A DNA stretch of 60,345 bases from an uncultured virus (IMG/VR IMGVR_UViG_3300031673_013668). Taxonomy: Duplodnaviria; Heunggongvirae; Uroviricota; Caudoviricetes. The position numbers and the translations under genes are program-made. Under the pieces are notes generated by a model. The model saw nothing but the letters and a program-made list of their open reading frames with translations. It was not told the DNA's origin and searched no databases. Where the stretch lies: the IMG/VR virus record IMGVR_UViG_3300031673_013668; one strand, written 5' to 3'. Each line of letters begins with the position of its first letter. Position 1 is the first letter of the stretch. Below are positions 1-47,133 of the stretch, in pieces.

Positions 1-306
1 AAAAGAGCATATAATCGATTATATGCGAAATTCCAGGATAATGTTACTAATATGATTAAAGATTATTATCCCGAATGGTTAAATGATCATAATAAAAATT
101 CTCTTTTTACATTCCATACATACCGGCATAATTTCATTACTGCGAGACAAATAATAGGCATCCCTGATAATATTGGCCAGTTATTTGTTGCTCACAAAAG
201 TCCTGATCCTGAAAGAAAATATTTTGATCCCTCTACCTTAATCGACTATTTCAAAAAAATTCAAAAAGCATTATTTATCGATTTAAATCCAATAGAAAAG
301 GTGTGA
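1..306 (+). CDS. Tyrosine recombinase/integrase, C-terminal part (5' truncated by window)
   Basis: Frame open from base 1; FHTYRHNF (HxxR), VAHKS (second His) and RKYF (candidate catalytic Tyr) at the expected spacing. Confidence 0.8.
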   Translation, partial: KRAYNRLYAKFQDNVTNMIKDYYPEWLNDHNKNSLFTFHTYRHNFITARQIIGIPDNIGQLFVAHKSPDPERKYFDPSTLIDYFKKIQKALFIDLNPIEKV

Positions 307-309
307 AAT

Positions 310-684
310 GTGAGAAAAGAAGATAAAAGACAAGAAGAATTAATGAAAAAATACCCTAATGGGATATCATTACAGGATCAAGTTTATGAATTTGAAGATA
401 AGTGGAAAAAAGATAACATAAAACAACTTCTTTTCAATATTTTCAATAGCTTTATGGTATTATCATTTGTATTTATCTTTGTATATTCTATTTATGACTG
501 GAATCTTCTCTCAATTGAGAATAGTGAGACTTTTTTTATCTTAATTATGATGGGTTTTGTTTCAGGATTATTCTTTCTATTATTTATCTTTATAATCTAT
601 TTTTCTATCATCGATTTTAAGCAAAATATTCAACTTAGAAAAGCAATGAAACAATTAGCAAAAATCAGAAATAAAAAGGTGTGA
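310..684 (+). CDS. Hypothetical membrane protein (2 TM)
   Basis: ORF track; two hydrophobic stretches; ends KKV*. Confidence 0.7.
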   Translation: MRKEDKRQEELMKKYPNGISLQDQVYEFEDKWKKDNIKQLLFNIFNSFMVLSFVFIFVYSIYDWNLLSIENSETFFILIMMGFVSGLFFLLFIFIIYFSIIDFKQNIQLRKAMKQLAKIRNKKV

Positions 685-689
685 AGAAA

Positions 690-812
690 ATGAATGAAGA
701 GAATATTCTGATTCAATGGACTGATAAAGCGATAAAGATAACGGTAGAATGTGATTGCGAAGATTCTAAGTTATTTTATAGTTTTTATATATCTTTGTTC
801 TCATTATTATAA
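690..812 (+). CDS. Small hypothetical protein (40 aa)
   Basis: ATG 5 nt after the junction motif; open to TAA 810-812. Confidence 0.45.
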   Translation: MNEENILIQWTDKAIKITVECDCEDSKLFYSFYISLFSLL

Positions 813-832
813 AAAAAGGTGAAAAAAAAAGA

Positions 833-967
833 ATGAATATGGAGGATATTGGGGTAAAATATGATATAGGAAACCTTAATGATCTAAATAAACCCCAATG
901 GGATGGAGTATATTTCTATATAGTTGATAATGAAAAAGCAAATAATATATTAAAAGAAAAGGTGTGA
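833..967 (+). CDS. Small hypothetical protein (44 aa), ends EKV*
   Basis: Manual translation MNMEDIGVKY...LKEKV*. Confidence 0.55.
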   Translation: MNMEDIGVKYDIGNLNDLNKPQWDGVYFYIVDNEKANNILKEKV

Positions 968-970
968 AAA

Positions 971-1210
971 GTGGGCAAACAAAGATATTTATATAAACAT
1001 ATGATGCTCTATATTATCATTTCATTCATTATTCTTGGTTATTTTGAATGGATTATTGTAACTCTTTATTTATCATATCTCCTACTATTTTTAAAGACTG
1101 AGTTGGAATTTAATCTTACATTTATGTTTTTTACAGCAGTTTATTTAGATTTTATTTTAATTATTTTAATTATTTATTTTCTAAAAATTACTTATTCAAA
1201 GAAGGTATGA
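971..1210 (+). CDS. Hypothetical membrane protein
   Basis: GTG start after the motif; hydrophobic; ends KKV*. Confidence 0.6.
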   Translation: MGKQRYLYKHMMLYIIISFIILGYFEWIIVTLYLSYLLLFLKTELEFNLTFMFFTAVYLDFILIILIIYFLKITYSKKV

Positions 1211-1246
1211 AAGCTGAAACAAAAAAAAGAAAAGGTGTGAAAATAA

Positions 1247-1507
1247 ATGGTGTATTGGTCTGAGTTTTGGTCTTGGTATTTATGGTTTTTAACATTCATG
1301 CTTGGAGTCGCATTAGGATTTGGTTCAAGAGAAATTATTACAAATTTAAAGAATTTAAAGAAATGGTTTAATCATATTTATAGAAAAATGAAATTAAAAT
1401 CTCATAATATATGTTTTCAATGTGAAGGTTTCTTTAAACCAAATGAATTAATTGAATATGAAAAAATGAAATTATGTCCAAAATGCTATAAATTATATAC
1501 AGAATAA
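1247..1507 (+). CDS. Membrane-anchored zinc-finger protein
   Basis: N-terminal TM segment; CxxC...CxxC (CFQC, CPKC). Confidence 0.6.
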   Translation: MVYWSEFWSWYLWFLTFMLGVALGFGSREIITNLKNLKKWFNHIYRKMKLKSHNICFQCEGFFKPNELIEYEKMKLCPKCYKLYTE

Positions 1508-1523
1508 ACTAAAGGTGTGAAAT

Positions 1524-1775
1524 GTGAAAGAAAAAGTTAAATGGGAATGGAATCCAAATCCTTATGTAATATGTATATTTGTAATTGAACTCTTTATCAT
1601 AATTATTACAGGATTCCTTTATTGTTTTGGAATTGCACCATATGAATTCTTTATGTACTTGGGTTTAAATGTTATATTTATGTTTATTATTTTTCTTAGT
1701 TTTTCTTATCTAAATCAAAGGAGACTTCATAAAAGAAGGATAAGATATAAAGGAAACAATAAAGAGAAGGTGTGA
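1524..1775 (+). CDS. Hypothetical membrane protein (2 TM)
   Basis: ORF track; ends EKV*. Confidence 0.6.
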   Translation: MKEKVKWEWNPNPYVICIFVIELFIIIITGFLYCFGIAPYEFFMYLGLNVIFMFIIFLSFSYLNQRRLHKRRIRYKGNNKEKV

Positions 1776-1778
1776 AAA

Positions 1779-2243
1779 GTGAAACTTAATAAAGAGGATT
1801 TTAATGAACTTGATAAACTTCTAAATAAAATAGGATTTGGTTCTTATTATGATTGCCTTCAATTATTAAAAGATGCAATTTATAATTTAAGATCGGATCT
1901 TCAATGTAAATTAGAGAAAGAAACTGATCTTCTTGTTCTTGTTATGTTAGTTAATAAATTAAGTAAAGGAAGAAATGATTTAGATCAAATAATCAAAGAA
2001 AGAAATCAATATATTGAGAAACTAACAATAGATCATGAACAAAGATTCAGAAAAATAATTGAAATCCTTAACAAAATTAAAGAGGAACTATCTATTTCGA
2101 TAGATTCTTGTAAAAATAGTCAAGAGTTTGCAATAGCAACAGGAGATAAATTAGGAGTAGAATATTACAGAGGGATAATAGATAGTCGTCAAGGCAGTCT
2201 AAAAATATTTATTGATTGGTTAAAAGAATTAGAAAAGGTGTGA
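1779..2243 (+). CDS. Hypothetical helical protein
   Basis: ORF track; ends EKV*. Confidence 0.65.
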   Translation: MKLNKEDFNELDKLLNKIGFGSYYDCLQLLKDAIYNLRSDLQCKLEKETDLLVLVMLVNKLSKGRNDLDQIIKERNQYIEKLTIDHEQRFRKIIEILNKIKEELSISIDSCKNSQEFAIATGDKLGVEYYRGIIDSRQGSLKIFIDWLKELEKV

Positions 2244-2247
2244 AAAT

Positions 2248-2508
2248 ATGCATTTACATTTGAATAAAGCAGAAATAACAGCAATTTTGAATTTAATTGA
2301 TTTTTATCATATAAATAATGATATGATTGCAGAAGCACTTGTATCTTTTATCGATAAGATTAATATGGAAATTAGAGATTGGGATAACCTTTTGGATGAA
2401 AAAGTATGCGAATTGATGGAAGTGTCCGATGAAGTCAAATATTTAAAGAAAAGAGAAGTGGAGAGAAATCTACTAAAATCGATGCTAAAACAAAGGTGTG
2501 AAAAATAG
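2248..2508 (+). CDS. Hypothetical coiled-coil protein
   Basis: ORF track. Confidence 0.55.
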   Translation: MHLHLNKAEITAILNLIDFYHINNDMIAEALVSFIDKINMEIRDWDNLLDEKVCELMEVSDEVKYLKKREVERNLLKSMLKQRCEK

Positions 2509-2948
2509 CAAAATCGAAAGCGATCTTTGAGAAGTGCTCCAAATGTGGTAATTGTTGCAAGAGTCATCCTTGCACGATGCATCCAGATGATTTACCAAAA
2601 ATAGCAGACTTTTTAGGATTATCAATTCAAGAAACAATCAATAAATACCTAATATGGAACAATAATACTTTATTGGAGAATTCCGAAGACAAATTTTACC
2701 TACGCCCTATGACTAAAAAAGAAACTAAAGATAAAGATAATATTTATGCTTTCTTTTTAGCTTCTGGGTCTTGTATCTTTCTTAATGAAAAGACTAATTT
2801 ATGCAAAATCCATCCTGTAATCCCTAGAGGAGGAAAGATGTGGTCTTGTGCCATGGAAATTAATGATGAAAATAGAAAAATTGTTTACATAAAAGAATAT
2901 GCTTATTATGATTGGGTTAATCATCCTTTATATCCTAAATTAAATTAA
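2505..2948 (+). CDS. YkgJ-family cysteine-cluster (Fe-S/Zn) protein, probable ATA start
   Basis: In-frame extension upstream of ATG 2577 supplies CSKCGNCC; C-terminal CIFL...LCKIHPVIP; in-frame TGA at 2499-2501 bounds the ORF. Confidence 0.75.
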   Translation: MAKSKAIFEKCSKCGNCCKSHPCTMHPDDLPKIADFLGLSIQETINKYLIWNNNTLLENSEDKFYLRPMTKKETKDKDNIYAFFLASGSCIFLNEKTNLCKIHPVIPRGGKMWSCAMEINDENRKIVYIKEYAYYDWVNHPLYPKLN

Positions 2949-2980
2949 ATGAATTAGAAATAATAGAAAAGGTGTGAAAA

Positions 2981-3277
2981 GTGAATAAAAAGAATATTGA
3001 ATCGTTAGGATTATTTTCTTTAGTCTTGTTTTTTATTATTCTTGATATACTTGTATTTATAGTTTTTACGACTTATTTTATCTATTGGCTAAACAATCTT
3101 GAAGCATATATTGAATTTGCTAAAATAGATCCTTGGTATGTTTATGGAGAATCAATAGGATATGAATATAGTATCTTTGATTGTATCTTTGTTTATAGTG
3201 TCTTTCTAATAATCTTTTTTTATATCAATTCAAAAGCTCTATTAATTTTGATTAAAAAACCAAAAGAAAAGGTGTGA
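2981..3277 (+). CDS. Hypothetical membrane protein (2 TM)
   Basis: ORF track; ends EKV*. Confidence 0.6.
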   Translation: MNKKNIESLGLFSLVLFFIILDILVFIVFTTYFIYWLNNLEAYIEFAKIDPWYVYGESIGYEYSIFDCIFVYSVFLIIFFYINSKALLILIKKPKEKV

Positions 3278-3280
3278 AAG

Positions 3281-3496
3281 TTGAAAGACAAAAGGAGCAG
3301 AATTAATTACGAATTGTTATTCTTTACTTCTTTTTGGGTATTTACAGGGTTCTTTACTTTAGTCACAACTCAAGGGTTACAGGATAATTCTTTTATTAAT
3401 TATACATCATTAAGAATTGTTGCGATTTTTTTTATCCTTCAATTCTTTATTGTTTTCCCTTATATATTTTACAAATTTAAAAAAGGAAAGGTGTGA
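3281..3496 (+). CDS. Hypothetical membrane protein (2 TM)
   Basis: TTG start; ends GKV*. Confidence 0.6.
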   Translation: MKDKRSRINYELLFFTSFWVFTGFFTLVTTQGLQDNSFINYTSLRIVAIFFILQFFIVFPYIFYKFKKGKV

Positions 3497-3499
3497 AAA

Positions 3500-4126
3500 C
3501 TGAAAAAAGAATTAAATGAATTAAAAAAGGGAATTGAAGCTTCAAATATCTTTTTAGTTATGTTAGATGAAGCTTATTTTAAGAATCCAGAATGTGTAGA
3601 GCAATTTCTATATGCAAAATTCCTTGGCAAATCAATGGTGATAATAGAGGAAAATAATATTATGAAACAATGTAAATCATACTTTAAGGGTTGTGATATC
3701 TTACTAAAAATGCCAATGACAGAAGACTCACCTACTCCTGAATACCTATTAAAAAAAATTAAAGAAGAGATAAAAAAAAGAAAGAATAAGGGATCAAATC
3801 AGGAGAAAGATATGAGATTGATCTTTGAGCTCAAGATTAATTCAGATTTGAAATGCAATTGGTGTAATAGGAAGATTGAAGATGGAGATTATATTAACCT
3901 AGATTCTGAATGCAAATTTGAAATAAAAGACGGATTAATAACAATCCATCACCACCATACTTCTCTTTATCATAATGAATGTGTCATAGAAGGATACCCT
4001 GAAGATATTGAGGATAATATAAAAATAATCAGTCAAGGTTATATCTTATGTTTAAGGGATATACCCTGTGAGAAATGCAGTTATTTCATTAAAAAATGTG
4101 AATGGGATTTAAAAAAAACAGATTAA
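3500..4126 (+). CDS. Protein with TIR-like N-terminal segment and Cys/His-rich C-terminus, probable CTG start
   Basis: GIEASNIFLVMLDEAYFKNPECVEQFLYAKFLGKSMVII resembles a TIR_2 core; CNWC and CEKC later. Confidence 0.45.
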   Translation: MKKELNELKKGIEASNIFLVMLDEAYFKNPECVEQFLYAKFLGKSMVIIEENNIMKQCKSYFKGCDILLKMPMTEDSPTPEYLLKKIKEEIKKRKNKGSNQEKDMRLIFELKINSDLKCNWCNRKIEDGDYINLDSECKFEIKDGLITIHHHHTSLYHNECVIEGYPEDIEDNIKIISQGYILCLRDIPCEKCSYFIKKCEWDLKKTD

Positions 4127-4133
4127 TCTAAAG

Positions 4134-4844
4134 GTGAACATAATCGAGATAGAAAGGTTATTTATCCTAAAAAATCAAGATGAGTTAGAACAGATAGAGG
4201 GGAAGGTCATTTCATTAGGTTTTGAATTAAAGGTTCAATCGTCTCAGCATAATTGTTATTATGATTTTCCTGATCATCGTTTAGAGAAAAAAGGCACACG
4301 CCTTCGGTTTCGGTATAATGAATATTATAAACTTCTTACTTCGCTTCCAAAATCGTTAGACTTAGAGATAGATAAAACAAATCAACTAATTGTAATTGAT
4401 GATTACGAAGGCAATATTATAGAAAAATACAATGGTGAACTTTCTCTATCAAAAGAGTGGTTTGATAAAGATCATAATGATGTAAGAGATCAAATTTCAT
4501 TTGAATTAGATAATCTCGAAGTTTTTGTAGATTTAGAAAATATTTTTAAGAAAATTGGATTCATCAATTCTTTTATAATTAACAAAGAGAGGAAAGAATA
4601 TGGGCTCAATTATTTTGATGATTTTAGAAAAAGTATTCATATTGAAATAGACTCGAATATTTTAGTAAAATCTCAATATCCCGATGTCTCTCTTGAAAAT
4701 ACATTACAAATATGTGTAGAAAAGGATACTCTTGAATTGACGAATCAAGAAATTGAAATATTCATAAAAAAATTAAATTCCGAAAGTCTAGAACTAACTA
4801 CAAAAAACTATTTTGAAAGAGCAAAAGAAAAACTAAAGGTGTGA
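4134..4844 (+). CDS. CYTH-domain (class IV adenylate cyclase/triphosphate tunnel) protein
   Basis: N-terminal EIE motif, YYD, LRFR, KERKEY, IEID. Confidence 0.75.
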   Translation: MNIIEIERLFILKNQDELEQIEGKVISLGFELKVQSSQHNCYYDFPDHRLEKKGTRLRFRYNEYYKLLTSLPKSLDLEIDKTNQLIVIDDYEGNIIEKYNGELSLSKEWFDKDHNDVRDQISFELDNLEVFVDLENIFKKIGFINSFIINKERKEYGLNYFDDFRKSIHIEIDSNILVKSQYPDVSLENTLQICVEKDTLELTNQEIEIFIKKLNSESLELTTKNYFERAKEKLKV

Positions 4845-4846
4845 AA

Positions 4847-5014
4847 ATGGCAATAGAAAAAGTCGATTTATATTATAAAGGAAAAATAATTGGATACACT
4901 ATTATAGATTACGAAAAGAAAGAATCTAAATCATATATTACTGCCCCAATTGGAGTGATTCAAAAAATAATAAATCAAAAAAAAGGAGTGAAAAAAAATG
5001 GCGAAAGTATTTAA
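4847..5014 (+). CDS. Small hypothetical protein
   Basis: ATG 2 nt after the junction motif; manual translation MAIEKVDLYY... Confidence 0.45.
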   Translation: MAIEKVDLYYKGKIIGYTIIDYEKKESKSYITAPIGVIQKIINQKKGVKKNGESI

Positions 5015-5168
5015 TTCATTTGAAGAATTTGAGAAAGAATTCTTTCCTAAGAGTTATGAAAAGAAACAATTACAGGAATTAATTAAACAAAAAGGATTTG
5101 GTACAATATTAGCTGAAATGTTTATTAAATCAATAAAAGAAGAATTAGAAAAATTAGAAAAGGTGTGA
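4998..5168 (+). CDS. Small hypothetical protein (56 aa), ends EKV*
   Basis: Manual translation MAKVFNSFEEFEKEFFP...LEKV*. Confidence 0.6.
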   Translation: MAKVFNSFEEFEKEFFPKSYEKKQLQELIKQKGFGTILAEMFIKSIKEELEKLEKV

Positions 5169-5175
5169 AATAAAT

Positions 5176-5955
5176 ATGCCAGGAATAACAATTGGTAATC
5201 CAGAATACAACATTAAAGAAAATGCTGATGAGATGGAATTTGAAGATTATTGGGAGGTATTAGTTCCTGAGAAATTATATAATTTTAGGGCTCTTAATAC
5301 ACTTTTCCCAACTATAGAAGAGAAAATGGAAACAATTAAACAATTCCCTCAACATTATAAGAAAATAATTTCGATAATCCATCTCGGTTATATGGGAAGT
5401 GGGGCATCAACCACAATTAGATTTATTGCATATTTAATGCAGACTTTCTATAAAAGGAAGGTTGATATAATCAATTTGGCTATAAATGAAATCGTAAAGC
5501 TGAACTGTGAAAATCTAAAAAGAATAATTGAATATTCTGAGAATAAAAGAAGATTGATTACCATCTCAGATACAGAAGGAGGTTTTATTCCTAGAGAGTA
5601 TACTATAAAAGAACCATTAAAACAACTCTTTAAAATATTAAAAGAAATAAATGGCTTAAACATCTTATTTCTCCCTATTTTAAATTTAAGGCCATTAGAC
5701 TTTGAACTAAATGATAGAAAGATAAAGAAAACAATCAAACTGATCTTTATAAAATCATATTATGAGAGATTAGAAAGAAAATTCAAGATAAATGAAGAAG
5801 ATCTTACCTTTCTAAAAGAAATCACACATGAAGGTATGGTAAAACGAAATTATGAGGCTCTGAAATTTTGTTTGGTAATTACATCTAAAAAAGAAGTGAA
5901 AAGAGGGATAATCATCCCTATTAGAGAAGATCAATTAATAATTAAAAAGGTGTGA
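5176..5955 (+). CDS. Degenerate P-loop ATPase, paralog of 31430-32788
   Basis: GYMGSGAST in place of GDMQSGKT; shared EVxxPE N-terminal and F.K.Y.E...FLK C-terminal patterns. Confidence 0.6.
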   Translation: MPGITIGNPEYNIKENADEMEFEDYWEVLVPEKLYNFRALNTLFPTIEEKMETIKQFPQHYKKIISIIHLGYMGSGASTTIRFIAYLMQTFYKRKVDIINLAINEIVKLNCENLKRIIEYSENKRRLITISDTEGGFIPREYTIKEPLKQLFKILKEINGLNILFLPILNLRPLDFELNDRKIKKTIKLIFIKSYYERLERKFKINEEDLTFLKEITHEGMVKRNYEALKFCLVITSKKEVKRGIIIPIREDQLIIKKV

Positions 5956-5958
5956 AAG

Positions 5959-6180
5959 ATGAACTCAGAAACAAAAGATAAAGAAAAATACAGTTGCCCT
6001 GAATGTGGTTCTTATGTTTTTTATATCACTACTACTGAAATTAATACTAAATTAAAATATAGATGTAGTAAATGTGGATATTCTACTGAAAAGAATTTTC
6101 AAAATTTATATGAGTTGAATAATTTTGAAAAAAACCGATTAGAATTATTAATAAAATCTACTCCAGAATTTAACCAATAA
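5959..6180 (+). CDS. Zinc-ribbon protein
   Basis: CPECG...CSKCG. Confidence 0.7.
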   Translation: MNSETKDKEKYSCPECGSYVFYITTTEINTKLKYRCSKCGYSTEKNFQNLYELNNFEKNRLELLIKSTPEFNQ

Positions 6181-6205
6181 AATAATAATTAAAAAGGTGT
6201 GAAGT

Positions 6206-6577
6206 ATGCCAATTAGATTAAAGCTTTTGCCGATATTTGGAGGAATAAGGGATTTTAATAATTATTCACATTCGATAATTGAATGTGCAGAAAGATCTGA
6301 ATTAGCAGGGGAAATTGAGAGCGTTGCTAGAGAAAAAGGAAAAATAGTGCCTAATGATTTTACATCATATCTAAGCAGAGATGATAATTATGAAGAACCT
6401 CATTATGGAAAAACATTAGAGGATTGTTATGGATCGCCCCTTCGATATCTTGATGTAAAAGAACTGCTCCAATTTAGCGATCATAAATATGTTCTAGATA
6501 ATTATAAAAATAGAGCAGTCTGGGCATATCTAAAAGAGCTTCCTGAAGATACTAAAATCGTGGTATATTTTGATTAA
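6206..6577 (+). CDS. Hypothetical virus-like protein
   Basis: ORF track; followed by a T-tract. Confidence 0.65.
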   Translation: MPIRLKLLPIFGGIRDFNNYSHSIIECAERSELAGEIESVAREKGKIVPNDFTSYLSRDDNYEEPHYGKTLEDCYGSPLRYLDVKELLQFSDHKYVLDNYKNRAVWAYLKELPEDTKIVVYFD

Positions 6578-6590
6578 TCTCCTTTTTTTT
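6578..6590 (+). terminator. Candidate archaeal oligo-T terminator closing the short-gene array
   Basis: CTCCTTTTTTTT immediately after the stop at 6577. Confidence 0.4.
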
Positions 6591-6632
6591 AATTATAAAG
6601 AGTTATGTGTGAGAAATCTATTCTATGTGTCT

Positions 6633-6675
6633 AATAAAAAGGTCTAATAGACTTTTCTCACATGGCTCTTAAATA
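6633..6675 (+). promoter_or_regulatory. 43-bp conserved promoter element, copy 1 (5' part divergent)
   Basis: TCTAATAGACTTTTCTCACATGGCTCTTAAATA. Confidence 0.8.
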
Positions 6676-6912
6676 GTTCTAAGGTTATTTTTTAACTAAT
6701 TCTTTTAAAATAAAGTAAATCACATGAAGCATCTATACCTTGGTTTTCTATTTTTTTCTCAGAAATATTTTAATTCATATTTTCTTAAATCTTTAGATGA
6801 TTACCCTTACAGAACTATTATGGAAGGAAAGAAAAGGAGTTATATTATTCATATTTGTAATCTGGGGGATTGTATTTGAAATTCTTTTGTATCTTAGCAT
6901 GTAATATAAAAG

Positions 6913-8694
6913 ATGTTTTGTACTATGTTTCATAAATCTCATAGGTCAAAAAGAAAGGTTATTAAAACAAAGAAAAGATTTATTAAGTCCTCTATTTTCT
7001 TGATTTTAATTGAATATTTATACATACTCACATGCTTAAGGACTAGTATTTATGATACATTCCTTTTACAAATCCCAATTCTCTTTTTCTATTACAAAAT
7101 CAATTTCATAAAGAAAAGAAAGCGTAAAGGTGTATATTTACTTTTCTTATTTATATTGCCTTATACTTCATTTTTAATTGAAGATAAAATCACAATTACC
7201 TCTAAGAAACAAGATCTAAATTACACATTCTGGGTTGAATCATATAACATACCTTATGAGGATGAATTAATCAAATTAAAAAGTAAAAATGTTGATTTTT
7301 TAATTCCAATAAGCACAAGCACATTAAATGATATTGGCTTTTTTTATGGAGGAAATGAAAGTTTCTCTTATGAAGATGTTGGAGAAGAAGAAAACATAAA
7401 ATGGGTTGATTCAAAATATATTTATGGAAATTGTAGTATTAAGATTGTTAAAGAATATGAAAATCATGGAAATGTATTAGAGATTCAGGATAAAGATTTA
7501 AAAAGCTATTGTATAATAAGACATAATTATAATTATAGTTTAATAAATAAAACAATAGAGTTTTGGATTGGTTCAACTGGTGGGTGTTCTGCTGTTGTAT
7601 CGTTTGGTAATTCTGAAAGGGAAATTGAATCATTAGCTTTTACAAGCAAGAATATTTGGAAAAGAATAAATATAACAGATTGGGATGTTGTTTTCAATGG
7701 TGTGGATTCTTATAAAAAATTATTACATATTAAAATTCTTTTTAGTAATTATTATTTTAATATATATTTAGAAAACATTTATTTAGGTACATCTAAATAT
7801 AGTTGCTTGTTTGATAATTATACATTTAATAACATTACTTATATGAGCTTATCTACGTTTAGCTTTCAAGAAAGCTGTATTTATTTTGATGCCATTGGCA
7901 CCACTGGTGATATAAGTTATAAAGAAGGACAAAATCTACATCCCTATAAATCAATTATTGACAATGATTATCCACAGTTCCAACGACTAAATGATATAGG
8001 AATTAAATATTCCTTATGTTTGATGGTTAATGATTATGCTTTTTTAGATAATGGTGAAACATTATTGTCATTATTAAAAAGCATTAGAAATTATGATTTT
8101 TACAAAACTGCTTCAGAAATTTTCATAGATGCTGAGATTTCTAAAGAAATTAGAGAAAAATTTACATTAAATACAATTCCATCAAATAATAAATATAGAG
8201 ATGGTTTAGAAATCTACAATGATATAAAAGAGATTATTAAAGAAGATGGCAAAGAATTTGGGATAATTAGAGGTCCAACAGCACCAGGGAATATTAATAA
8301 AGCAACAAGGAATGTTCCTTTTGATGAACTGGGTTTTGATTTAAGTGTGATTATGCTTTATAGAACATATGAAAATATCTATCAAAAAAACTCAGATTAT
8401 TGGTTTTATCAATCTGTTAAAAAAGAAAAGGGAAACATCTTTATCGGAAGTCTTAAGAAAGGTTATTCTGATTTGAGAAAAGACCTAACAATATGTAGTT
8501 CTCTTGGAAAAGAAAGAATATTTATATATGAATATGAGAGTTTTTCAGATAAATATAGCCTAGATGATTTAAAACCATACAAAAGAAGCATAACCATACA
8601 AAAGAAGTGTGAAAATTATGAGTATTTTATAAAATTCCTTGGTTTAGAGTGCTTAAACTTCCTTTTACTTTTTCACTTCATATATACAAATTAG
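6913..8694 (+). CDS. Membrane protein with ConA-like insert and glycoside-hydrolase-like domain; paralog of 9372-11102
   Basis: TM segments at both ends; IDAE, FDLSVIMLYRT and IFIG motifs shared with 9372. Confidence 0.55.
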   Translation: MFCTMFHKSHRSKRKVIKTKKRFIKSSIFLILIEYLYILTCLRTSIYDTFLLQIPILFFYYKINFIKKRKRKGVYLLFLFILPYTSFLIEDKITITSKKQDLNYTFWVESYNIPYEDELIKLKSKNVDFLIPISTSTLNDIGFFYGGNESFSYEDVGEEENIKWVDSKYIYGNCSIKIVKEYENHGNVLEIQDKDLKSYCIIRHNYNYSLINKTIEFWIGSTGGCSAVVSFGNSEREIESLAFTSKNIWKRINITDWDVVFNGVDSYKKLLHIKILFSNYYFNIYLENIYLGTSKYSCLFDNYTFNNITYMSLSTFSFQESCIYFDAIGTTGDISYKEGQNLHPYKSIIDNDYPQFQRLNDIGIKYSLCLMVNDYAFLDNGETLLSLLKSIRNYDFYKTASEIFIDAEISKEIREKFTLNTIPSNNKYRDGLEIYNDIKEIIKEDGKEFGIIRGPTAPGNINKATRNVPFDELGFDLSVIMLYRTYENIYQKNSDYWFYQSVKKEKGNIFIGSLKKGYSDLRKDLTICSSLGKERIFIYEYESFSDKYSLDDLKPYKRSITIQKKCENYEYFIKFLGLECLNFLLLFHFIYTN

Positions 8695-8700
8695 CGATAA

Positions 8701-8743
8701 ATTATACACTTCTAATAGACTTTTCTAACATTCATTTTTTATA
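8701..8743 (+). promoter_or_regulatory. 43-bp conserved promoter element, copy 2
   Basis: ATTATACACTTCTAATAGACTTTTCTAACAT...TTTATA. Confidence 0.85.
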
Positions 8744-8790
8744 GGTTTAATCGTCTATTTTAAAATAAGAATTAGAAAAAGTGTTTTTTT

Positions 8791-9345
8791 ATGGGTTGGA
8801 TCAAATCTCTGTTTAAAAATACGGTATTTCAGATAGTGTGTCAGGTAATTTTAATTTTTTCAGGCTTTATTATGATTGCGCTTCAGGTTAATATGCAATA
8901 TTTTGAGATGGGGAGTAATCCATGGAATGCAAGGCTCTATGGGATTATAGGAACATTTTTAATCTCAATCGGGACCTCAGTCGTGGGTTCTGAACTTATG
9001 ATGAGTCTTAAGCGCTTTTTAATAACTACAGCGATATTATTTGGGTGTTGGACTTTCGTAGGAGGCTTTTTTGTCTTGAATGATATATCAGCAGGGACAA
9101 ATTATACGAAGGGTAATCTCTGGGTGGGGTTCGATGCCTTAAGTGGGACACTTCAGGGAGCTAGTGTTATCACAAATGCAGTATTTATTTTATTGATAAT
9201 CGGGATACTTATTACTGCAGTTCTATTTATCGTACTGAGATATAAGGATAAGGGGTCTCGTATTACAACCATTATTTTAATAATTTCAGCAATAGTTTTG
9301 AGTTGCATCTATTTTTTTATGAGAGCAGGGGTTATATTATTTTAA
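8791..9345 (+). CDS. Multi-pass membrane protein, candidate virion envelope protein; paralog of 11245-11805
   Basis: MGSNPWNARLY and NYTKGNLWVGFDAL shared with 11245. Confidence 0.65.
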   Translation: MGWIKSLFKNTVFQIVCQVILIFSGFIMIALQVNMQYFEMGSNPWNARLYGIIGTFLISIGTSVVGSELMMSLKRFLITTAILFGCWTFVGGFFVLNDISAGTNYTKGNLWVGFDALSGTLQGASVITNAVFILLIIGILITAVLFIVLRYKDKGSRITTIILIISAIVLSCIYFFMRAGVILF

Positions 9346-9371: not shown

Positions 9372-11102
9372 ATGCTAGATAAAAGCTTTTGTAATAAGAT
9401 TCTTTTGGTGGGGCTTCTTACATTCTATTTTTTCATGTTTGAATTAGCGTTTATTGTAGTGTTGATGAGATCTTTATTAGTGTTGAGTATTTTAGAAATA
9501 CTTCTCTGCCAAATCTTATCAATCTCGCTTTATACATTCCTCTTTTATGTATCTTATACAAAACGGATCTGGCGCATAAATCTTTCTATATTCTTTAGCA
9601 TCCTTTCTTTAGTTGCCCTTTTGATATTTGTTTTATTTCATATACCTCATATAATAGAGGTCATTCTGTCTTTAGCGCTTATTTTAGCAGTCATAGTTTT
9701 TATAATTATAAAGGTAATTATAAAATCGCATTTATGGGCTCTTATTTTAAAAATAATAATTATTTCATTATTCTGTATTTTAGCATATTTCTTTTTAAGC
9801 ACCCAATTCTTTATCTCGAAAGTAATTTTCTTAAGTTCTGCAATAGGTTCTGTTATAGCCTTATTCTATTCCATCAAAACATTTAACACTCCTTCAATAA
9901 AACCTCTTAATCTTAAATTATATTTCAAATTAGCATTAGTGTCAATCCCTTTAATAAGTGCATCTTTTTTATTTTTTCCAATCAAATCTGTAGAAATTGA
10001 TCCTGATGGAGAACCTGAATTAGTATTTTGGTCAGATCCTTTCTCATTACCACGTTCAAATACTACATTACAAACATGTGCTCAAAATGGGATCACATTT
10101 ACAGTTGTATTAAGAACATCCTTTATTGATAGTGTTGATGAGAGAACCACGGTAGCCTCACGAATTCAGAACTTAATTGATGCGGGATTGAGATTTCATA
10201 TAACTATTGGGGGCCCTTCAGGTGACTTTTATTGCCATATAGATAATGCCGACACTTTTCTTGAAGAATTCAAAATCATCAGGGCATTTTTATTAAATTA
10301 TAGTCTTTATGCATATATAGATTCTATTAATGTAGATGCCGAATCTCCAGGAGATTATTTTAAACAATTTGAAACCGAAGGATATTCTACTGCCGGACAG
10401 TATTATGTTAAGAGTTTACCTTCTGAACGTGATATAGAAAAAGCAGAAGAGGGGCTGAAAGAGTTCTTAGAATTAATTCATGCTGATGGGAAGGATGCTG
10501 GCATTATTATGAACCCTATTTATCTCGATGAGGAAGATGGAGACTCAGATCAGGCACAACTCCAAAAAACTATTTATGGGCTTGATTTAGATTTTGACTA
10601 TAGCGTCACGATGCTATACCGGACGCAACGAGTCCCAAGCGTTTTTGACTATGCTCTTTTAGGGTTGAAAGATTATCATTATCTTAATGATTATGAAATT
10701 GACTACTATAAATATGAGAAAGAAGATCGTTATTTAATGCCTCTCTCCGAGTTTTATTATAAAGTCTCTTTAGAAATGTCAGGCAGTCCCGTTGGTGTAA
10801 AGGGGAATGAGCGTTACATTTTTATAGGCAACTTTCATAGCAGAAATAAATATACCTCTTATATAAAAGATAAAGAGTATAAAAAAGATTTAGATATTTG
10901 TAAGCATTTTGAGATCGAAAAGGTTTTTCTTTATGAATGGTCATCATTTATAAGTCGATATGGTGAGGAAGAACTAGAAAAACTCGGTTCTCATAATCAG
11001 CATAATAAAAAATGGGTTCTTACCTTTCCGAGTTATTCTTTATACCGAGAGCTTGCTTATGTGCTTATCATCGTGATGTGTGATCGCTTCCTCTATCTTT
11101 AG
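9372..11102 (+). CDS. Multi-TM protein with soluble glycoside-hydrolase-like domain
   Basis: About 7 N-terminal TMs; NVDAES, FDYSVTMLYRT. Confidence 0.55.
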   Translation: MLDKSFCNKILLVGLLTFYFFMFELAFIVVLMRSLLVLSILEILLCQILSISLYTFLFYVSYTKRIWRINLSIFFSILSLVALLIFVLFHIPHIIEVILSLALILAVIVFIIIKVIIKSHLWALILKIIIISLFCILAYFFLSTQFFISKVIFLSSAIGSVIALFYSIKTFNTPSIKPLNLKLYFKLALVSIPLISASFLFFPIKSVEIDPDGEPELVFWSDPFSLPRSNTTLQTCAQNGITFTVVLRTSFIDSVDERTTVASRIQNLIDAGLRFHITIGGPSGDFYCHIDNADTFLEEFKIIRAFLLNYSLYAYIDSINVDAESPGDYFKQFETEGYSTAGQYYVKSLPSERDIEKAEEGLKEFLELIHADGKDAGIIMNPIYLDEEDGDSDQAQLQKTIYGLDLDFDYSVTMLYRTQRVPSVFDYALLGLKDYHYLNDYEIDYYKYEKEDRYLMPLSEFYYKVSLEMSGSPVGVKGNERYIFIGNFHSRNKYTSYIKDKEYKKDLDICKHFEIEKVFLYEWSSFISRYGEEELEKLGSHNQHNKKWVLTFPSYSLYRELAYVLIIVMCDRFLYL

Positions 11103-11142: not shown

Positions 11143-11185
11143 ATTATACACTTCTAATAGACTTTTCTAACATGACTCTTAAATA
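11143..11185 (+). promoter_or_regulatory. 43-bp conserved promoter element, copy 3
   Basis: ATTATACACTTCTAATAGACTTTTCTAACATGACTCTTAAATA. Confidence 0.9.
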
Positions 11186-11244
11186 GTGTTAATTCTATTT
11201 TTAGTCAATATAAATATATTTATATAAATGAGGTTAAAAAAACA

Positions 11245-13950: not shown

Positions 13951-14679
13951 ATGGAGTTAGAGGCTAAAAAGATCAAGAAAATAAAAATTGAGGAGATCTC
14001 TAAAGAACATTTTGGAGATCGAGTATGTTTAGATTTTAATAGTTTATTGGGAGAAAATGAAGGTTTATTGGTGGGAAACTATAGCAGAGGGTTGTTTCTT
14101 ATTAATAATGAAAAAGCTCCTGAAGCGCAAAAATATGAAATTGAGGAGAGACCTTTTAGGGTTAATGCGGGAGTCGTTTCTGCGTATGTGTATATGCCTA
14201 ACGGTAAAACAAAATATCTTTCCGAGCTTAGGACAGGGGACAAAGTATTAATAATAAATCCCAAAGGTCATGCGAGGGAAGTTGAGATCACAAGACTTAA
14301 AATAGAAACAAGACCTATGACCTTAATAAGAGGAACAAGCATCTATGATAAGGAGATCCCTCTTGAGACTGAAAGAGATCTTACCTATTTTAAAACATAT
14401 CGAGAAATATTTAAATGGTACGACCCACACACGATGGATCCTATATTAAAAGTTCAGGACGTGGAGTCTTATATCGGAAAAAAGCTTCATGTCAAAATGG
14501 ATATCTCAACATACGTTCAAACCGCAGAAACGGTTAGATTAGTAAAAGCCCCGGAGGAGAAACCGATCTCTATAACAGACCTTGAATTAGGAATGGAAGT
14601 CTATGCCTATATTATAAATCCTACCTTAAGAGGGCGCCATTTCGGAACCGAATATGAAGGGTTCTGCCTAGAAGTCTAA
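13951..14679 (+). CDS. 3-dehydroquinate synthase II (AroB'-like) C-terminal domain only
   Basis: GDRVCLD, EGLLVG, RPFRVNAG, TKYLSEL, KIETRPM, QTAETVRL, RHFG. Confidence 0.8.
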   Translation: MELEAKKIKKIKIEEISKEHFGDRVCLDFNSLLGENEGLLVGNYSRGLFLINNEKAPEAQKYEIEERPFRVNAGVVSAYVYMPNGKTKYLSELRTGDKVLIINPKGHAREVEITRLKIETRPMTLIRGTSIYDKEIPLETERDLTYFKTYREIFKWYDPHTMDPILKVQDVESYIGKKLHVKMDISTYVQTAETVRLVKAPEEKPISITDLELGMEVYAYIINPTLRGRHFGTEYEGFCLEV

Positions 14680-15171: not shown

Positions 15172-15384
15172 ATGACAAAATATGCTACGATATCCCTCCC
15201 TAAGAAGTTTATTCAAAAGATCAATGCCGTTATTATAGAAAATCCTGAGGCTGGCTATTCTAGCGTAGCTGAATTCGCAAGGGATGCAATAAGATCCCTT
15301 CTAAGAGAAATTGATAGTAAAAAAAAGGATTCAAGACCCTCTCCAGAAGTGCCCATCATTATTGAGGAGGATTTAAATGAGTAA
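15172..15384 (+). CDS. Ribbon-helix-helix regulator
   Basis: YATISLPKKFIQKI...GYSSVAEFARDAIR. Confidence 0.85.
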   Translation: MTKYATISLPKKFIQKINAVIIENPEAGYSSVAEFARDAIRSLLREIDSKKKDSRPSPEVPIIIEEDLNE

Positions 15385-16342
15385 GAAAACTAAACAAGGA
15401 TCCATTCAACAATTTGGAACATTAGAACGCTTTCTTACTCCACTTGTTGAGAGATTTTCATATAAGCCCGATAAAGATTTTGCTCGTTATAGCTTTGGTC
15501 TCTTTAATGAACACGAAATATTTTATTATGCTATAAATAAAGAGATGTGTTTTACTTTAGATGAATTTGCAAAATATATAATTATCCCATATAATACCGT
15601 TGCAAGGGCATTTAAAAGAATGACTTTGAAAAAATTTGGAGATGAATCATATCAATTTATTGAAGGAAAAGATTATTTTAAGGAGCTTAGAAGTAATTTT
15701 GGATCGATGGACAATTTGTCCATCGATAGTAAAGGGGATAAAAACATTATTTTCCTCACATTTTTGGGAACTTGGAAATTATTACCTACTTTTAGAAATG
15801 ATATCCCAATCAAATTATATCATTGGTTTGGGGAGAAACTTTATTTGTTAATGAAATCAAATCAATTAATTTCAGGAGAATTCTTCTTTACAAATAAAAT
15901 AGGTACTTTGGTTCACCAAATTATTGGAGATAAAAAAAGGTGTTTTGTTGATGAAAAAGGATATATGTATTCTTCAAAAGGAGAGATGTTAATTGCTAAA
16001 ACTCTGAGGCAAATTAATATTGATTTTCAATATAATGCGCCCATTAATTTACCAAATTGGCTTATTACTAAATTACGGAAAGATTTTCCTAAAGAAATCT
16101 TACTTAAAGCAGGATGGATGACTATTCCTTCATATATTACTTCTGATTTTTTATTAAGAATAATCCCTAAAACAGTTATTGAATATTGGGGGATAGAAGA
16201 TTCATCTTCTTATAATGCTAAAAGGGAAATAAAAGAATTTATTTATCGTGAGATAGAAATTCGATGCATTCCAATTGAAGCCCACGAAGACCATAATATT
16301 CCGATTTTAAAGAAAAATTTACTTAAAAAATTAGAAAATTAA
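15377..16342 (+). CDS. Antirepressor-like (Bro-N/KilA/ORF6N-like) N-terminus fused to a PD-(D/E)XK-like nuclease; paralog of 46176-47129
   Basis: FIEGKDYF and IFLTFLG N-terminal pattern; SKGEMLIA...SDFLL...VIEYWG C-terminal pattern. Confidence 0.55.
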   Translation: MSKKTKQGSIQQFGTLERFLTPLVERFSYKPDKDFARYSFGLFNEHEIFYYAINKEMCFTLDEFAKYIIIPYNTVARAFKRMTLKKFGDESYQFIEGKDYFKELRSNFGSMDNLSIDSKGDKNIIFLTFLGTWKLLPTFRNDIPIKLYHWFGEKLYLLMKSNQLISGEFFFTNKIGTLVHQIIGDKKRCFVDEKGYMYSSKGEMLIAKTLRQINIDFQYNAPINLPNWLITKLRKDFPKEILLKAGWMTIPSYITSDFLLRIIPKTVIEYWGIEDSSSYNAKREIKEFIYREIEIRCIPIEAHEDHNIPILKKNLLKKLEN

Positions 16343-16373
16343 AGAAGAAATTAAAAACAATAAATAAAAAGAG

Positions 16374-17409: not shown

Positions 17410-17452
17410 ATTATACACTTCTAATAGACTTTTCTCACATGACTCTTAAATA
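17410..17452 (+). promoter_or_regulatory. 43-bp conserved promoter element, copy 4
   Basis: ATTATACACTTCTAATAGACTTTTCTCACATGACTCTTAAATA. Confidence 0.9.
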
Positions 17453-17517
17453 ATGTAAATCCATATTTAAAAGCAATAATTAAGATATTTCTTCATTATA
17501 ATTTATTATCTCTAGAA

Positions 17518-20500
17518 ATGAGAAAAGAAAGTAAGAAAAAAATAATCATCGGATTCATCATTAGTTTGATAGTTTTTTCAGTTCTCTTTTTCTTATCTCA
17601 AAATGGTTTGGCAACCCAAGATGATGAAGACACTGAAGCCACGTTGCATTGTTCTTTAGAAACTAATTCTCTTGAACTTGTTGGAAGTACACTAATGACA
17701 TTGGGGACTTATTCGTTTTGGGAAGAACCTGAATTAGATATTGGAGCATTTAGTCACGATACCACAAGAGTAGAAATATCTGAAATACAAAACGCATTAT
17801 TTGAGACAACATCTACAAACTTTAATAATACGATAATTCCTTCAAATTTAATGTTTAATCATACTACAAATTCTATTCCTGAATATACAACTTCAGCTCC
17901 ATTTGATACAATTATTTCTACAAATATTAATTATAATTATACAAACTTTGTAAATTATGATACTTATGAAGGATTTACATTAGAAACGGGAAATATAGTT
18001 CCAAATGGAGATATACAAAAACAATGGCAGAGACCTATAGGAAACGATAATTATGCTCTTATTGATGAGGGAATTATACCAATTACTATAGGTGGAGACT
18101 ATATATTTCATTCAAGCGATAATGAATATACAGATATCTATACTATGGGAACCATTGATATGTCGGGATATGATTCTTATGTGGGAGGTGGTGTGGGAAA
18201 ACAGGTTTATCAAATTACTTGCTATATTTATTGTTATAGTGTATGGTCTTCCTCAAATATATATTTCTCTGGAAATCAACTTGGAATGGTTGAGACACCC
18301 GTGTCTTGTCCAATATCAAATTATGGGTGGAGGACAGTTGTATGGTCTGGATTGAAGTTAAATCAAACTGAGTTAAATAATTTACAAATAACAAATAGAA
18401 AACCTTATGCTTATGATATTGATTATTATATTGGTACAATGTATTGTAAAGTAGATTTCTATGGAAACGCTAATAATTCTTTAAGTGAACCATTTAAGGG
18501 ACTTCAAGTTAATAATTTTAAATATCAAATTCTTGGAACAAATTATACAGCACCATCATTTAACATTTCTTATAATCCTTTATATGGTAATTATCTACCA
18601 CTTAAAGAAGAAAATGTGTTTGTATCATATTATTTTACAAGTATGAGTTTAACATATTATGATCATATAAATGACTTAATAATTCTCCCTCAAAATTTAA
18701 GTTTAACCTTTTATTTTTGGTTTAGTGAGGTATCATATAATTTTTCTGTAAATGTTTCTTGGAGCTTTAATGAATGGAAAGTTCCAACGGAAGTGGATTT
18801 AGCGATAAATGGCGAGGAAGTAATTGATAGCACCTACAACTCTGGGTTTTGCCTTCTTTCAACGTATCCCACATTCCTCATGATTACAGCGACAGATACG
18901 GTATTTTTTAAACTTAACATTTCCATCGACTTTAGTTTTTCCTTTTCCTTAGATGTCATATCAAAAACATATTTACGTAAATCATTTGAATTGGAGAGTA
19001 ATCATGAAATAAATATAGAGCAAATCAATTTCGATTCTAATTTAGTCATTAAGAAAATCTATTTGAATAATGCTGATAAGGGTTCAAGTAATCCTTGCAT
19101 GTTATCTCCAAGTGTGAGTATGGATACTGGGAATATTTATTATTTAGAGGTAATTTTAACGGAGGAGATCTATTTACCATTACAATATTTTTATAACGCT
19201 CTGGGAGATGGCACATCTTCAATATATATGTCAGGGAGTATAAATACATTACATTATTATAATATTGGAGGTAATTCTCTCTACAGTTTAGTTATTCCTT
19301 CAGGCTGGGTTGTAGAAAATGGTTATCTCACATTCTCAAATCTGGATTATTTACCAGATTATACTCCGAATTATAGTGAGGATTTAAATGATTATGGTTA
19401 TTCCTCGCCTAGTTATGGAGATGAGGACGTATCATGGGATTCACAATATTATCAAACTAATGCAAATGGAACAAAAATAGACGAGTCTGGCGGGAGTGGT
19501 TATGAAATAGTCTATGCAGAGTATTTCAATGCTCTGAATGGATATATGTATCATACCTATGGAGACTTGGATGGATACAATAGCACATACTCAGTTGTGG
19601 ATTATCTCTACATGCAGAATTTATTCCCAACCGAATTTAGTTATGAAGATTGGTCAGACTGGGTACATTATTATAATCCATATTATATTTTAAGCTCTTT
19701 TGATTCTGGAAGTTTGAGCTCTTCTTTATCCCCTGAGCCTGATGAAAGTGTTCCTTTAAATGATTCTTTTACCTTTATAAATGGTACAAAAATAGATGAT
19801 GGTAATTTTTATGAGATTGATGAGGATTATGCTTATTTTTTATATGATATTTTTAATGAAACTGAGAATTTTGAGTTTCTTACCGCAAGTTATGATATTG
19901 GTGGGTTAGGTGGTAATGATCATCCTTATGATATTTGTTATTCTAATAATTATTTTTATGTAACAGATGGTACTTTCGATTATATCTATAAATATCCGAC
20001 AGATTTTAGTACACTCACAGAAAGTTATGATATTGGTGGGTTAGGTGGTAATGATTATCCTCGTGGAATTTGTGAATATAATAATTCCTTTTATGTAACA
20101 GATGGTACTTTCGATTATATTTATCAATATCCATTAGATTTCTCCACACTTACAACATCCTATAATATAGGAGCTTTAGGTGGTAATAATGAACCTATTG
20201 GTATTTGTTATTCTAATAATTATTTTTATGTAGTGGATTATATCGATTGTTATGTATATCAATATCCATTAGATTTCTCCACACTTACAGCATCCTATAA
20301 TATAGGAGCTTTAGGTGGGAATGATGCTCCTTATGGAATTTGTTATTCTAATAATTATTTTTATGTAGTGGATTATATCGATTGTTATGTATATCAATAT
20401 CCATTAGATTTCTCCACACTTACAGCATCCTATAATATTGGAGCTTTAGGTGGGAATGATGCTCCTTATGGAATTTGTGAATATAATACGTATTTTTATG

Positions 20501-26414: not shown

Positions 26415-26457
26415 ATTATACATTTCTAATAGACTTTTCTAACATGAGACTTAAATA
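26415..26457 (+). promoter_or_regulatory. 43-bp conserved promoter element, copy 5
   Basis: ATTATACATTTCTAATAGACTTTTCTAACATGAGACTTAAATA. Confidence 0.9.
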
Positions 26458-26512
26458 TTTAGAAAAGCATTTTTTAATAATACTCTATATAAAATAAAAA
26501 AATGTTCTAAAA

Positions 26513-28500: not shown

Positions 28501-28542
28501 ATTATACACTTCTAATAGACCTTTCTAATATAATATTAAATA
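28501..28542 (+). promoter_or_regulatory. Conserved promoter element, copy 6
   Basis: ATTATACACTTCTAATAGACCTTTCTAATATAATATTAAATA. Confidence 0.85.
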
Positions 28543-28612
28543 ACCTATCTTCTTTAGACTATATTTAGGAACGGACTTAACTATAAAAATTGATTGTTTC
28601 ACGTGAAAAACT

Positions 28613-34175: not shown

Positions 34176-34218
34176 ATTATACACTTCTAATAGACTTTTC
34201 TCACATGAGTCTTAAATA
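34176..34218 (+). promoter_or_regulatory. 43-bp conserved promoter element, copy 7
   Basis: ATTATACACTTCTAATAGACTTTTCTCACATGAGTCTTAAATA. Confidence 0.9.
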
Positions 34219-34266
34219 TTTAGAAAAGCATTTTTTTATAATACTCTATATAAAATAAAAAAAAGA

Positions 34267-45943: not shown

Positions 45944-46165
45944 ATGGGTAATGAAATAAACTTTAAAATTGATAAGGATCTTTGTGATGAAGTTAAGGAA
46001 ATTGCTCAGAATAAATTCCCTTTAAGAAAGATTTTGTCTTATGCTGATGCAATCAAAGAGGCTCTGCTTGAATTTGCTAATGCCCGAAAAAATCAAAGAT
46101 ACAAAAACAAAAAAAACACAGAATCAACATCTTCGATTAATCAAGAAAACACCATCAAAATATAG
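45944..46165 (+). CDS. RHH-like regulator
   Basis: INFKIDKDLCDEVKEIA...SYADAIKEAL. Confidence 0.7.
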   Translation: MGNEINFKIDKDLCDEVKEIAQNKFPLRKILSYADAIKEALLEFANARKNQRYKNKKNTESTSSINQENTIKI

Positions 46166-46175
46166 GAGGAATTAA

Positions 46176-47129: not shown

Positions 47130-47133
47130 ATAA

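Follow-up and report, generated by a model that had tools for sequence, protein, structure and literature searches.

Short unrelated genes that are gathered into exchangeable arrays are best known from integrons, in which each cassette carries at its 3' end an attC site, whose imperfect inverted repeats form a hairpin, and the IntI integrase lies at the head of the array by attI, usually in divergent orientation. Here we describe an array of about 30 mostly tiny, co-directional ORFans, about half of them two-transmembrane (2-TM) proteins, in a stretch of 60,345 nt recorded as an uncultured virus (IMG/VR IMGVR_UViG_3300031673_013668); this whole stretch is called the window below. An earlier note on this DNA had read positions 291-6205 as an integron-like array, in which one short sequence at the gene boundaries, called the junction here, serves as a crossover site; the remainder of the window amounts to ~54 kb. 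Two other systems are close in the way they shuffle genes. In T4-type phages, cassettes marked by a promoter-early stem-loop (PeSL) are shuffled within hyperplastic regions (Arbiol et al., 2010, PMC2839356), and short conserved boundary ("linker") sequences have been proposed to drive phage mosaicism by homologous recombination that leaves the genes intact (PMC3029335). A third system is close in the way it expresses them, as archaeal termination-reinitiation with an intragenic Shine-Dalgarno (SD) motif was shown experimentally in Haloferax (Huber et al., 2019, PMC6728339). Our analysis leads us to regard it as fairly probable that the junction is a translational-coupling signal which doubles as a short-homology recombination seam and so makes the array modular.

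In order to see how strictly the junction belongs to the array, we counted it across the window. The 12-mer AAAGGTGTGAAA had 31 matches with up to two mismatches, against 11.1 +/- 3.4 in 100 dinucleotide-preserving shuffles, none of which reached 31. Twenty of these 31 matches lay on the plus strand between 297 and 6204, and the 12 exact copies all fell within 297-5957. Its core GGTGTGA was found 15 times on the plus strand in 300-6196 and only twice on both strands of the other 54 kb. Our gene list has 18 boundaries from the recombinase stop to the start at 6206; 15 of them held the exact core and the other three variants of it, and the motif is thus present at essentially every boundary of 291-6205, as the earlier note had stated. 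Junctions also continue beyond the left end of the window, on a metagenome contig (L034) that matches window 1-3263 at 100% identity and adds 9.3 kb of sequence upstream of it. Over the ~8.5 kb formed by this contig and the array part of the window, AGGTGTGAA was invariant in 19 of 19 junctions, and the consensus GAAAAGGTGTGAAA (n=19) carried ~23 bits relative to the A-rich local background. Elsewhere in the window the same layout of SD, stop and start was observed, but the SDs were varied and the stops were TAA. Among 17 close co-directional junctions outside the array, the commonest 7-mer was present in three, and GAGGT and AGAGG in six each, so that the uniformity is local, as had been claimed.

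The junction TGA is the in-frame stop of the upstream gene at 14 of the 19 junctions. Window ORFs (open reading frames) ending K-V-stop in a junction were those that close at 306, 684, 967, 1210 (with the variant GGTATGA), 1775, 2243, 3277, 3496, 4844, 5168 and 5955. Twelve had been listed previously; these 11 are real ORFs, but the one closing at 1240 is a 9-codon frame without an ATG, GTG or TTG start. At the other five junctions the TGA does not close the upstream gene, as it lies in intergenic DNA past an earlier stop at 1511, 2968 and 6193, and in another frame at 2492 and in its paralogue upstream. The junction is thus kept even in places that do not encode K-V-stop, so the nucleotides are conserved and matter, not the K-V peptide. 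No inverted repeats, dyad symmetry or attC-like hairpin were found at the junctions, in agreement with the earlier note on the last point. Nine junction regions folded no better than shuffles (z +1.53 to -1.33), as expected for an open ribosome site, and an Rfam search of window 1-7000 gave no match at E <= 1.

We then considered the junctions as translation signals. AGGTG, which corresponds to the archaeal SD core, lies 5-11 nt ahead of the next start at all 19 junctions, and that start lies 2-8 nt beyond the TGA. A spacing of exactly 3 nt, previously described as usual, was found at 10 of 15 window junctions, but at the others it was 2-7 nt. The gap from stop to next start was at most 10 nt in 11 of 17 window gene pairs, and in the other six an earlier stop precedes the junction. 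Neighbouring genes are co-directional, are separated by a short gap or overlap, and have the SD within the upstream 3' end, which is the layout by which translational coupling is recognised. Starts were also unusual. Twelve of the 30 array genes use codons other than ATG (ATG 18, GTG 8, TTG 1, CTG 1, ATA 2) and 18 stop at TGA; all 37 genes in the rest of the window start with ATG (GTG 0; TTG, CTG and ATA 0), and five of them stop at TGA. The YkgJ-like gene encodes its CxxCxxCC motif upstream of the first ATG (2577), so its translation must start at or near the ATA at 2505, which overlaps the upstream TAG as "ATAG" and sits 3 nt past the junction TGA. The 208-aa ORF likewise appears to need the CTG at 3500, exactly 3 nt past a junction TGA, its first ATG being at 3560.

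This geometry suggests that at almost all boundaries a single element provides both stop and ribosome site, as the earlier note had proposed, and the simpler reading given there, a strongly selected termination-reinitiation signal, best describes the likely primary function, ahead of a crossover site. AGGTG would act as the SD core, the TGA fused to it would close the upstream gene and thereby give it the K-V tail, and the next start would follow 2-8 nt on. Through this fusion of SD, stop and start, the terminating small subunit would be handed to the next gene by termination-reinitiation, and reinitiation would explain why GTG, TTG, CTG and ATA starts are tolerated. The junctions described in the available part of the Haloferax paper (PMC6728339) are similar in that the genes are co-directional, the SD lies in the upstream 3' end, and stop and start are a few nt apart. 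Unlike here, where one 9-12 nt sequence recurs at 19 consecutive boundaries, the junctions in that part of the paper are individual; the common K-V tail and the many non-ATG starts also set the array apart from the cases it presents.

If the junctions also serve as a seam, rearrangements should be found in them. The stretch is contained in six public runs, and contig joints were examined in four of these; of the 10 joints listed, eight had a shorter side of only 20-24 nt and were discarded as unreliable, as were all entries with letters between the two sides. In contigs of X5 and X6, which are separate study codes and both 2019 soil metagenomes, window 296 was joined to 1511 with 0 mismatches and a shorter side of 255 nt, so that 1,214 bp were skipped. 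Seventeen nt (AAAGGTGTGAAATGTGA) fit either side of this joint, which places the breakpoint inside two junction copies; any two junctions have 9-21 identical nt in common, 17 in the case of this pair. Five genes are gone in this variant, and the 1524 gene, with its GTG start, now comes directly after the recombinase stop. A gene has also been duplicated between junctions. Window 2231-2453 recurs upstream of the recombinase in L034 (223 nt, 96% identical, minus 14 codons), and on both sides the homology starts and stops inside junctions. P0034 has the 14-codon deletion of this upstream paralogue on the window allele. The idea that cassettes can be lost and stay coupled is supported by the 296/1511 deletion, and the duplication speaks for the earlier note as well. 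As the same 12-21 nt stand as a direct repeat at every boundary, the junction would act as a seam of short homology. Whole genes would be removed or duplicated when two copies recombine or slip, and a working junction would be restored automatically.

In this respect the array resembles PeSL cassettes. As described in the available part of the PeSL paper (PMC2839356), small non-essential ORFans are separated by copies of one regulatory element, recombination between copies deletes or inserts genes and leaves one working element, and no dedicated site-specific recombinase is required. The repeated element, the ORFans and the element-bounded indels were all found in our array; the promoter and stem-loop make-up was not, as there is no stem-loop. 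The PeSL of that account is conserved over ~100 bp, is transcriptional (a sigma-70 promoter plus a terminator stem-loop) and belongs to bacteriophages, whereas the junction is 9-21 nt long, translational, free of stem-loops and part of an Asgard archaeal element. Compared with the phage linkers as presented in the available part of PMC3029335, the boundary sequence is here present at essentially every boundary of one array. The array is, in these terms, an archaeal, translational form of a known modular-shuffling architecture, and on our best reading of these comparisons it resembles PeSL cassettes more than integrons.

We further characterised the ORF ending at 306, which is a divergent tyrosine recombinase by fold and Pfam family. 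Its PF00589 match scored 27.1 bits, equal to the cut-off, and it matched the integrase family PHROG_1 at 1.8e-7. The AlphaFold model (pLDDT 83) had its best PDB folds among XerA, IntI, XerH, lambda Int and Cre; XerA (5hxy) was at the top with E 1.2e-5, and the top matches were all tyrosine recombinases, so that IntI is only one of many. A sequence search of the PDB with the recombinase gave no relative. Its family is very small, as only 20 of 1.84 billion representatives belonged to it at E <= 0.001, and none of the control genomes in the family search via L019 was Asgard. Of the catalytic R-K-H-R-H/W-Y set, K224, H300, R303, H326 and Y335 were invariant or nearly so in a 15-member alignment. 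At the position that we read by eye as the box I Arg, 14 of the 15 members have Gly or Ser, and P0001 and its relative P0002 also lack an Arg that other members have two residues further on.

The earlier note had placed the recombinase directly before the array. The upstream part of L034 overturns this, as it contains the recombinase gene in full length, together with four additional GGTGTGA junctions and about nine more small genes of the same orientation, most of which encode 2-TM proteins. The recombinase is thus embedded in the array and is not its head, and since its start overlaps the stop of the preceding small gene, it is one coupled member of the array. (L034 itself ends at window 3263, 5 nt short of a junction.) Array proteins from either side of the recombinase have the same longest recorded contig, of 122,345 bp. 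Like integrons, the locus has short, unrelated, mostly unknown genes on one strand, a tyrosine recombinase nearby, and a loss breakpoint in the repeated boundary element. Unlike them, it has no attC hairpins, its boundary is an asymmetric 12-mer within coding and translation signals, and deletions away from the motif occur as well; the recombinase does not belong to the IntI family by sequence, lies inside the array, and is co-oriented with it, with junction-type boundaries on both sides. The array is therefore partly integron-like in its working but lacks the defining marks of an integron, having neither attC nor IntI at its head.

How, then, are the fixed sequence and the rearrangements to be explained together? 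The motif, its geometry, its local restriction and the two junction-bounded rearrangements were observed directly, while coupling itself, and a mechanism driven by homology rather than by the recombinase, are what we infer. Generic short-homology behaviour is also seen away from the junctions. A second deletion in X5 joined 2726 to 5974 (3,247 bp, 2727..5973, skipped; shorter side 79 nt; 11 nt common) at a match, AAAGATAAAGA, which is no junction and lies inside two coding regions. The independently called protein P0038 is exactly the in-frame YkgJ/Zn-ribbon chimera that this deletion predicts. The expectation that indel breakpoints would fall inside the motif was hence borne out by the 1,214-bp deletion but not by this one. 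Several observations weigh against the combination that we infer. Loose ends of contigs lay near a junction in four of 17 places (the best supported 17 of 483; P = 0.14, not significant). Just one junction-bounded deletion and one junction-bounded duplication were seen, selection alone could enrich such survivors, and X5 and X6 may stem from a single sampling campaign. Furthermore, nine nt invariant at 19 of 19 junctions exceed the known need of reinitiation, so that some step which copies or homogenises the junction has to be assumed as well; the fixation could have come about by the spread of duplicated or inserted cassettes, by gene conversion or by a dedicated mechanism.

Some of these points would suit a junction that is an expression signal and nothing else, optimised for termination-reinitiation, with the rearrangements having survived merely by keeping the operon readable and without any special propensity to recombine. 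Divergence points are not enriched at junctions, a non-junction deletion exists, and the layout of SD, stop and start is also used elsewhere in the window. We nevertheless consider this unlikely, though the strongest of the alternatives: independent selection would hardly fix nine nt at 19 of 19 junctions on a contig that tolerates many combinations of SD and stop, and one deletion has its breakpoint exactly in a 17-nt identity. The 2726/5974 deletion speaks for generic short-homology recombination over a site-specific enzyme, and it also counts against the view of the earlier note, that of an integron-like platform without attC, on which the 12-bp junction is the crossover site where the embedded recombinase excises, captures and reorders cassettes. 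A protein of tyrosine-recombinase fold is indeed in the array, one deletion and one duplication are bounded within junctions, P0002, at 67-72% identity, likewise ends in E-V, and the gene just downstream of the recombinase found only itself and a 99% copy, which fits variable cargo. Yet the motif has no inverted-repeat arms or hairpin, the recombinase is co-oriented, lies mid-array and is translationally coupled like any cargo gene, and its family members below 55% identity lack the K-V end, most of them having a C-terminal extension. The replaced box I Arg in 14 of 15 members, together with the missing nearby Arg in P0001 and P0002, also argues against it, and no reliable circle-type joint was found in the run contigs. 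Nothing in evidence connects the recombinase with the motif, and we hold such a platform to be improbable. The proposals that the recombinase drives the shuffling and that the motif is a dedicated crossover site are accordingly not upheld, given the recombinase's place as one coupled gene inside the array, the lack of dyad symmetry, the non-junction deletion and the divergence points.

A broader version of that proposal, an Asgard cassette platform without attC in which the 9-17 nt coupling junction is the recombination site of the embedded atypical recombinase or of some other dedicated enzyme, has in our judgement an equally small chance of being right. If it were true, a captured ORF would receive its stop, ribosome site and restart ready-made, and the array would be a nursery of new small membrane proteins. 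Least probable of all is a non-ribosomal site, such as one at which RNA is cleaved during processing, or an operator, bound by a regulator of DNA or RNA, that happens to overlap the gene ends. The invariance of the core beyond what SD pairing needs would agree with it, but the motif keeps a fixed register with stops and starts, its TGA being in frame at 14 of 19 junctions and the next start following 2-8 nt later, which points to translation; neither symmetry nor an Rfam match was found. A coupling signal that is also a short-homology seam thus continues to be the reading we favour. Beside it we note "double junctions", which may be scars of past junction-level events. At 1201-1242 a decayed copy, GAAGGTATGAAA, lies ~20-30 nt before an intact junction; at L034 ~5612-5556 (-) the 3' end of a gene is duplicated in tandem over 27 nt, the first junction copy being degenerate; and contig-joint data suggest a similar layout after a relative of the 3281 gene.

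The features of the array are collected in Table 1. As for the cargo, Pfam supports only the CYTH and CxxCxxCC genes, both named in the earlier note; no library supports the TIR-like protein that it had also named. Its dead ATPase, the 259-aa protein, is a plausible lead only, with a P-loop-like match in the Atlas (features 0.94, TM 0.63) and, read by eye, GSGAST at the Walker A position, where GSGKST would be expected, that is, Ala in place of Lys. Homologue searches with the genes at 5176-5955 and 310-684 returned only the query or copies of 99-100% identity, and cluster look-ups of 20 array proteins gave identical or near-identical members only, except for P0034 and P0038. PADLOC and PHROGs, applied to 28-29 array proteins, gave nothing above noise but the integrase, with noise for the Zn-ribbon. 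The GC (guanine plus cytosine) content of the cargo was uniform at 0.27 +/- 0.03. A T8 run at 6583-6590 follows the last array gene and would be an archaeal oligo-T terminator; a scan for sigma-70 promoters and terminators uses a bacterial consensus and is uninformative for an archaeon.

Table 1. Coordinates of the array and of related features (window positions unless L034 is named; nt, both ends included)
Feature	Position	Strand	Remarks
Recombinase, 3' part	1..306	+	ends I-E-K-V-stop within the first window junction
Full recombinase gene	L034 4049..2958	-	362-363 aa; P0001 (362 aa) 100% identical to the fragment
Junction 1 (AAAGGTGTGAAA)	297..308	+	recombinase stop; GTG start at 310; left breakpoint of 1,214-bp deletion
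Five-gene block	310..1507	+	entire block missing from deletion variant
Block genes	310-684 (2-TM); 690-812; 833-967; 971-1210 (2-TM); 1247-1507 (Cys-pair protein)	+	
Block junctions	675-686; 815-826 (variant GGTGAAA); 958-969; 1201-1212 (decayed variant); 1231-1242	+	
Junction after TAA stop	1511..1522	+	not K-V-stop; GTG start 1524; right deletion breakpoint
Two genes	1524-1775 (2-TM); 1779-2243 (154-aa ORFan)	+	GTG starts; K-V-stop in junctions 1766-1777 and 2234-2245
Cassette gene 2248-2508 (86 aa) plus two junctions	2231..2508	+	duplicated upstream of recombinase
Junction	2492-2503	+	other frame; gene ends R-C-E-K-stop at TAG 2506-2508
CxxCxxCC (YkgJ-like) gene	2505..2948	+	Pfam PF03692 1.5e-9, from residue 10
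Junctions	2968-2979; 3268-3279; 3487-3498	+	
Two 2-TM genes	2981-3277 (GTG start); 3281-3496 (TTG start)	+	both end K-V-stop
208-aa ORF (CTG 3500 start)	3500..4126	+	no family match
Variant junction AAAGGTGAAC and CYTH-domain gene	4130..4844	+	variant GGTGAAC at ~4130-4141; Pfam PF01928 2.6e-9; K-V-stop in junction 4835-4846
Small genes	4847-5014; 4998-5168	+	variant junction AAAGGAGTGAAA (GGAGTGA) at 4982-4993; junction 5159-5170
259-aa ORFan	5176..5955	+	P-loop NTPase-like fold (lead only); K-V-stop in junction 5946-5957
Zn-ribbon gene	5959-6180	+	
Junction	6193-6204	+	
Last array gene	6206-6577	+	
GGTGTGA outside the array	39517		+	
GGTGTGA outside the array	28890		-	
~45-nt element copies	6642-6690; 8710-8760; 11152-11200; 17419-17470; 26424-26475; 28510-28560; 34185-34235	+	

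We also looked for related arrays elsewhere. Scanning viral contigs for two junctions gave 0 matches, and an 18-mer junction scan of the same kind of contigs gave three single chance matches and no arrays; aligning the recombinase against viral contigs found no relative. The two-junction scan of genome contigs gave 19 loci, all of them tandem repeats within unrelated, mostly bacterial sequences, and that of metagenome contigs gave 78 loci, of which only L033/L034 (one contig) represent the array, the rest being other repeats. Among the latter contigs, L089 and L041 carry dense arrays of ~35-nt units ending GGTGTGAATAAGAGAAC at irregular spacings of 45-540 nt, which are unrelated to our array. 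Two sets of described elements were compared as well and did not match: the aloposons, which in the available part of PMC8813620 have giant genes and integrate at tRNA genes, and the Atabeyarchaeia elements, for which the available part of PMC11529989 gives genomes of ~50% GC and describes no junction motif. The host of the array is an uncultured Promethearchaeota (Asgard) archaeon, and the region is gene-dark and probably mobile; the source label of P0002 is Promethearchaeota, i.e. Asgard. Among 30 proteins downstream of the array, PHROGs searches recognised no virus hallmark and only a single family, whose function is not known.

Several other features of the region were recorded. Upstream of the array, L034 encodes a 256-aa protein with repeated helix-turn-helix (HTH) modules at 8059-8829 (+) and, at 10270-10491 (-), a 74-aa protein with a weak histone-fold match. 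In the window, seven plus-strand genes, several of which are large ORFans, are preceded at a distance of ~60-270 nt by a conserved intergenic element of ~45 nt (core TTCTAATAGACTTTTCT). Its 17-nt core TTCTAATAGACTTTTCT gave nine matches at <=3 mismatches against 1.4 expected; no copy was found in the array or L034, the first one standing directly after the last array gene, and the element is probably a shared promoter or leader. The giant ORF at 17518-25443 (2,641 aa) has no Pfam or PHROG match and includes ~135-nt tandem repeats at 19879-20537 with 75-86% identity. Segments 15353-16355 and 46152-47130 are paralogous over ~0.8-1 kb at 83-84% identity, each with a ~320-aa gene and its upstream region. 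At 13951-14679, a 242-aa ORF surrounded by ORFans aligns in two stretches with the 3-dehydroquinate synthase II profile, of whose 344 positions it covers only 165-286; it looks like an aroB' gene that has been truncated or rearranged. An IS607-like pair at 42832-45100 (-) consists of a serine resolvase with HTH (PF00239) followed by TnpB/OrfB_IS605 with a Cas12f-like TNB domain. Finally, a PCNA homologue (PF00705/PF02747) and small ribbon-helix-helix or NikA-like proteins are encoded at 56748-57689 and 58774-60345, which is in keeping with the wider region being a plasmid- or virus-like replicon.

In summary, termination-reinitiation coupling and junction shuffling would be combined here in an unusually pure form, and next to nothing is known of either in this lineage. 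If our reading holds, an expression signal of 9-12 nt suffices to make an array modular without integron machinery, and accessory-gene regions of viruses and mobile elements in different domains may have converged on this design quite generally. Importantly, the 19 near-identical junctions, with ATG, GTG, TTG, CTG and ATA starts behind them, form a natural test bed in Asgard archaea, which could reveal how SD pairing and reinitiation are carried out by a ribosome that works with eukaryote-like initiation factors.

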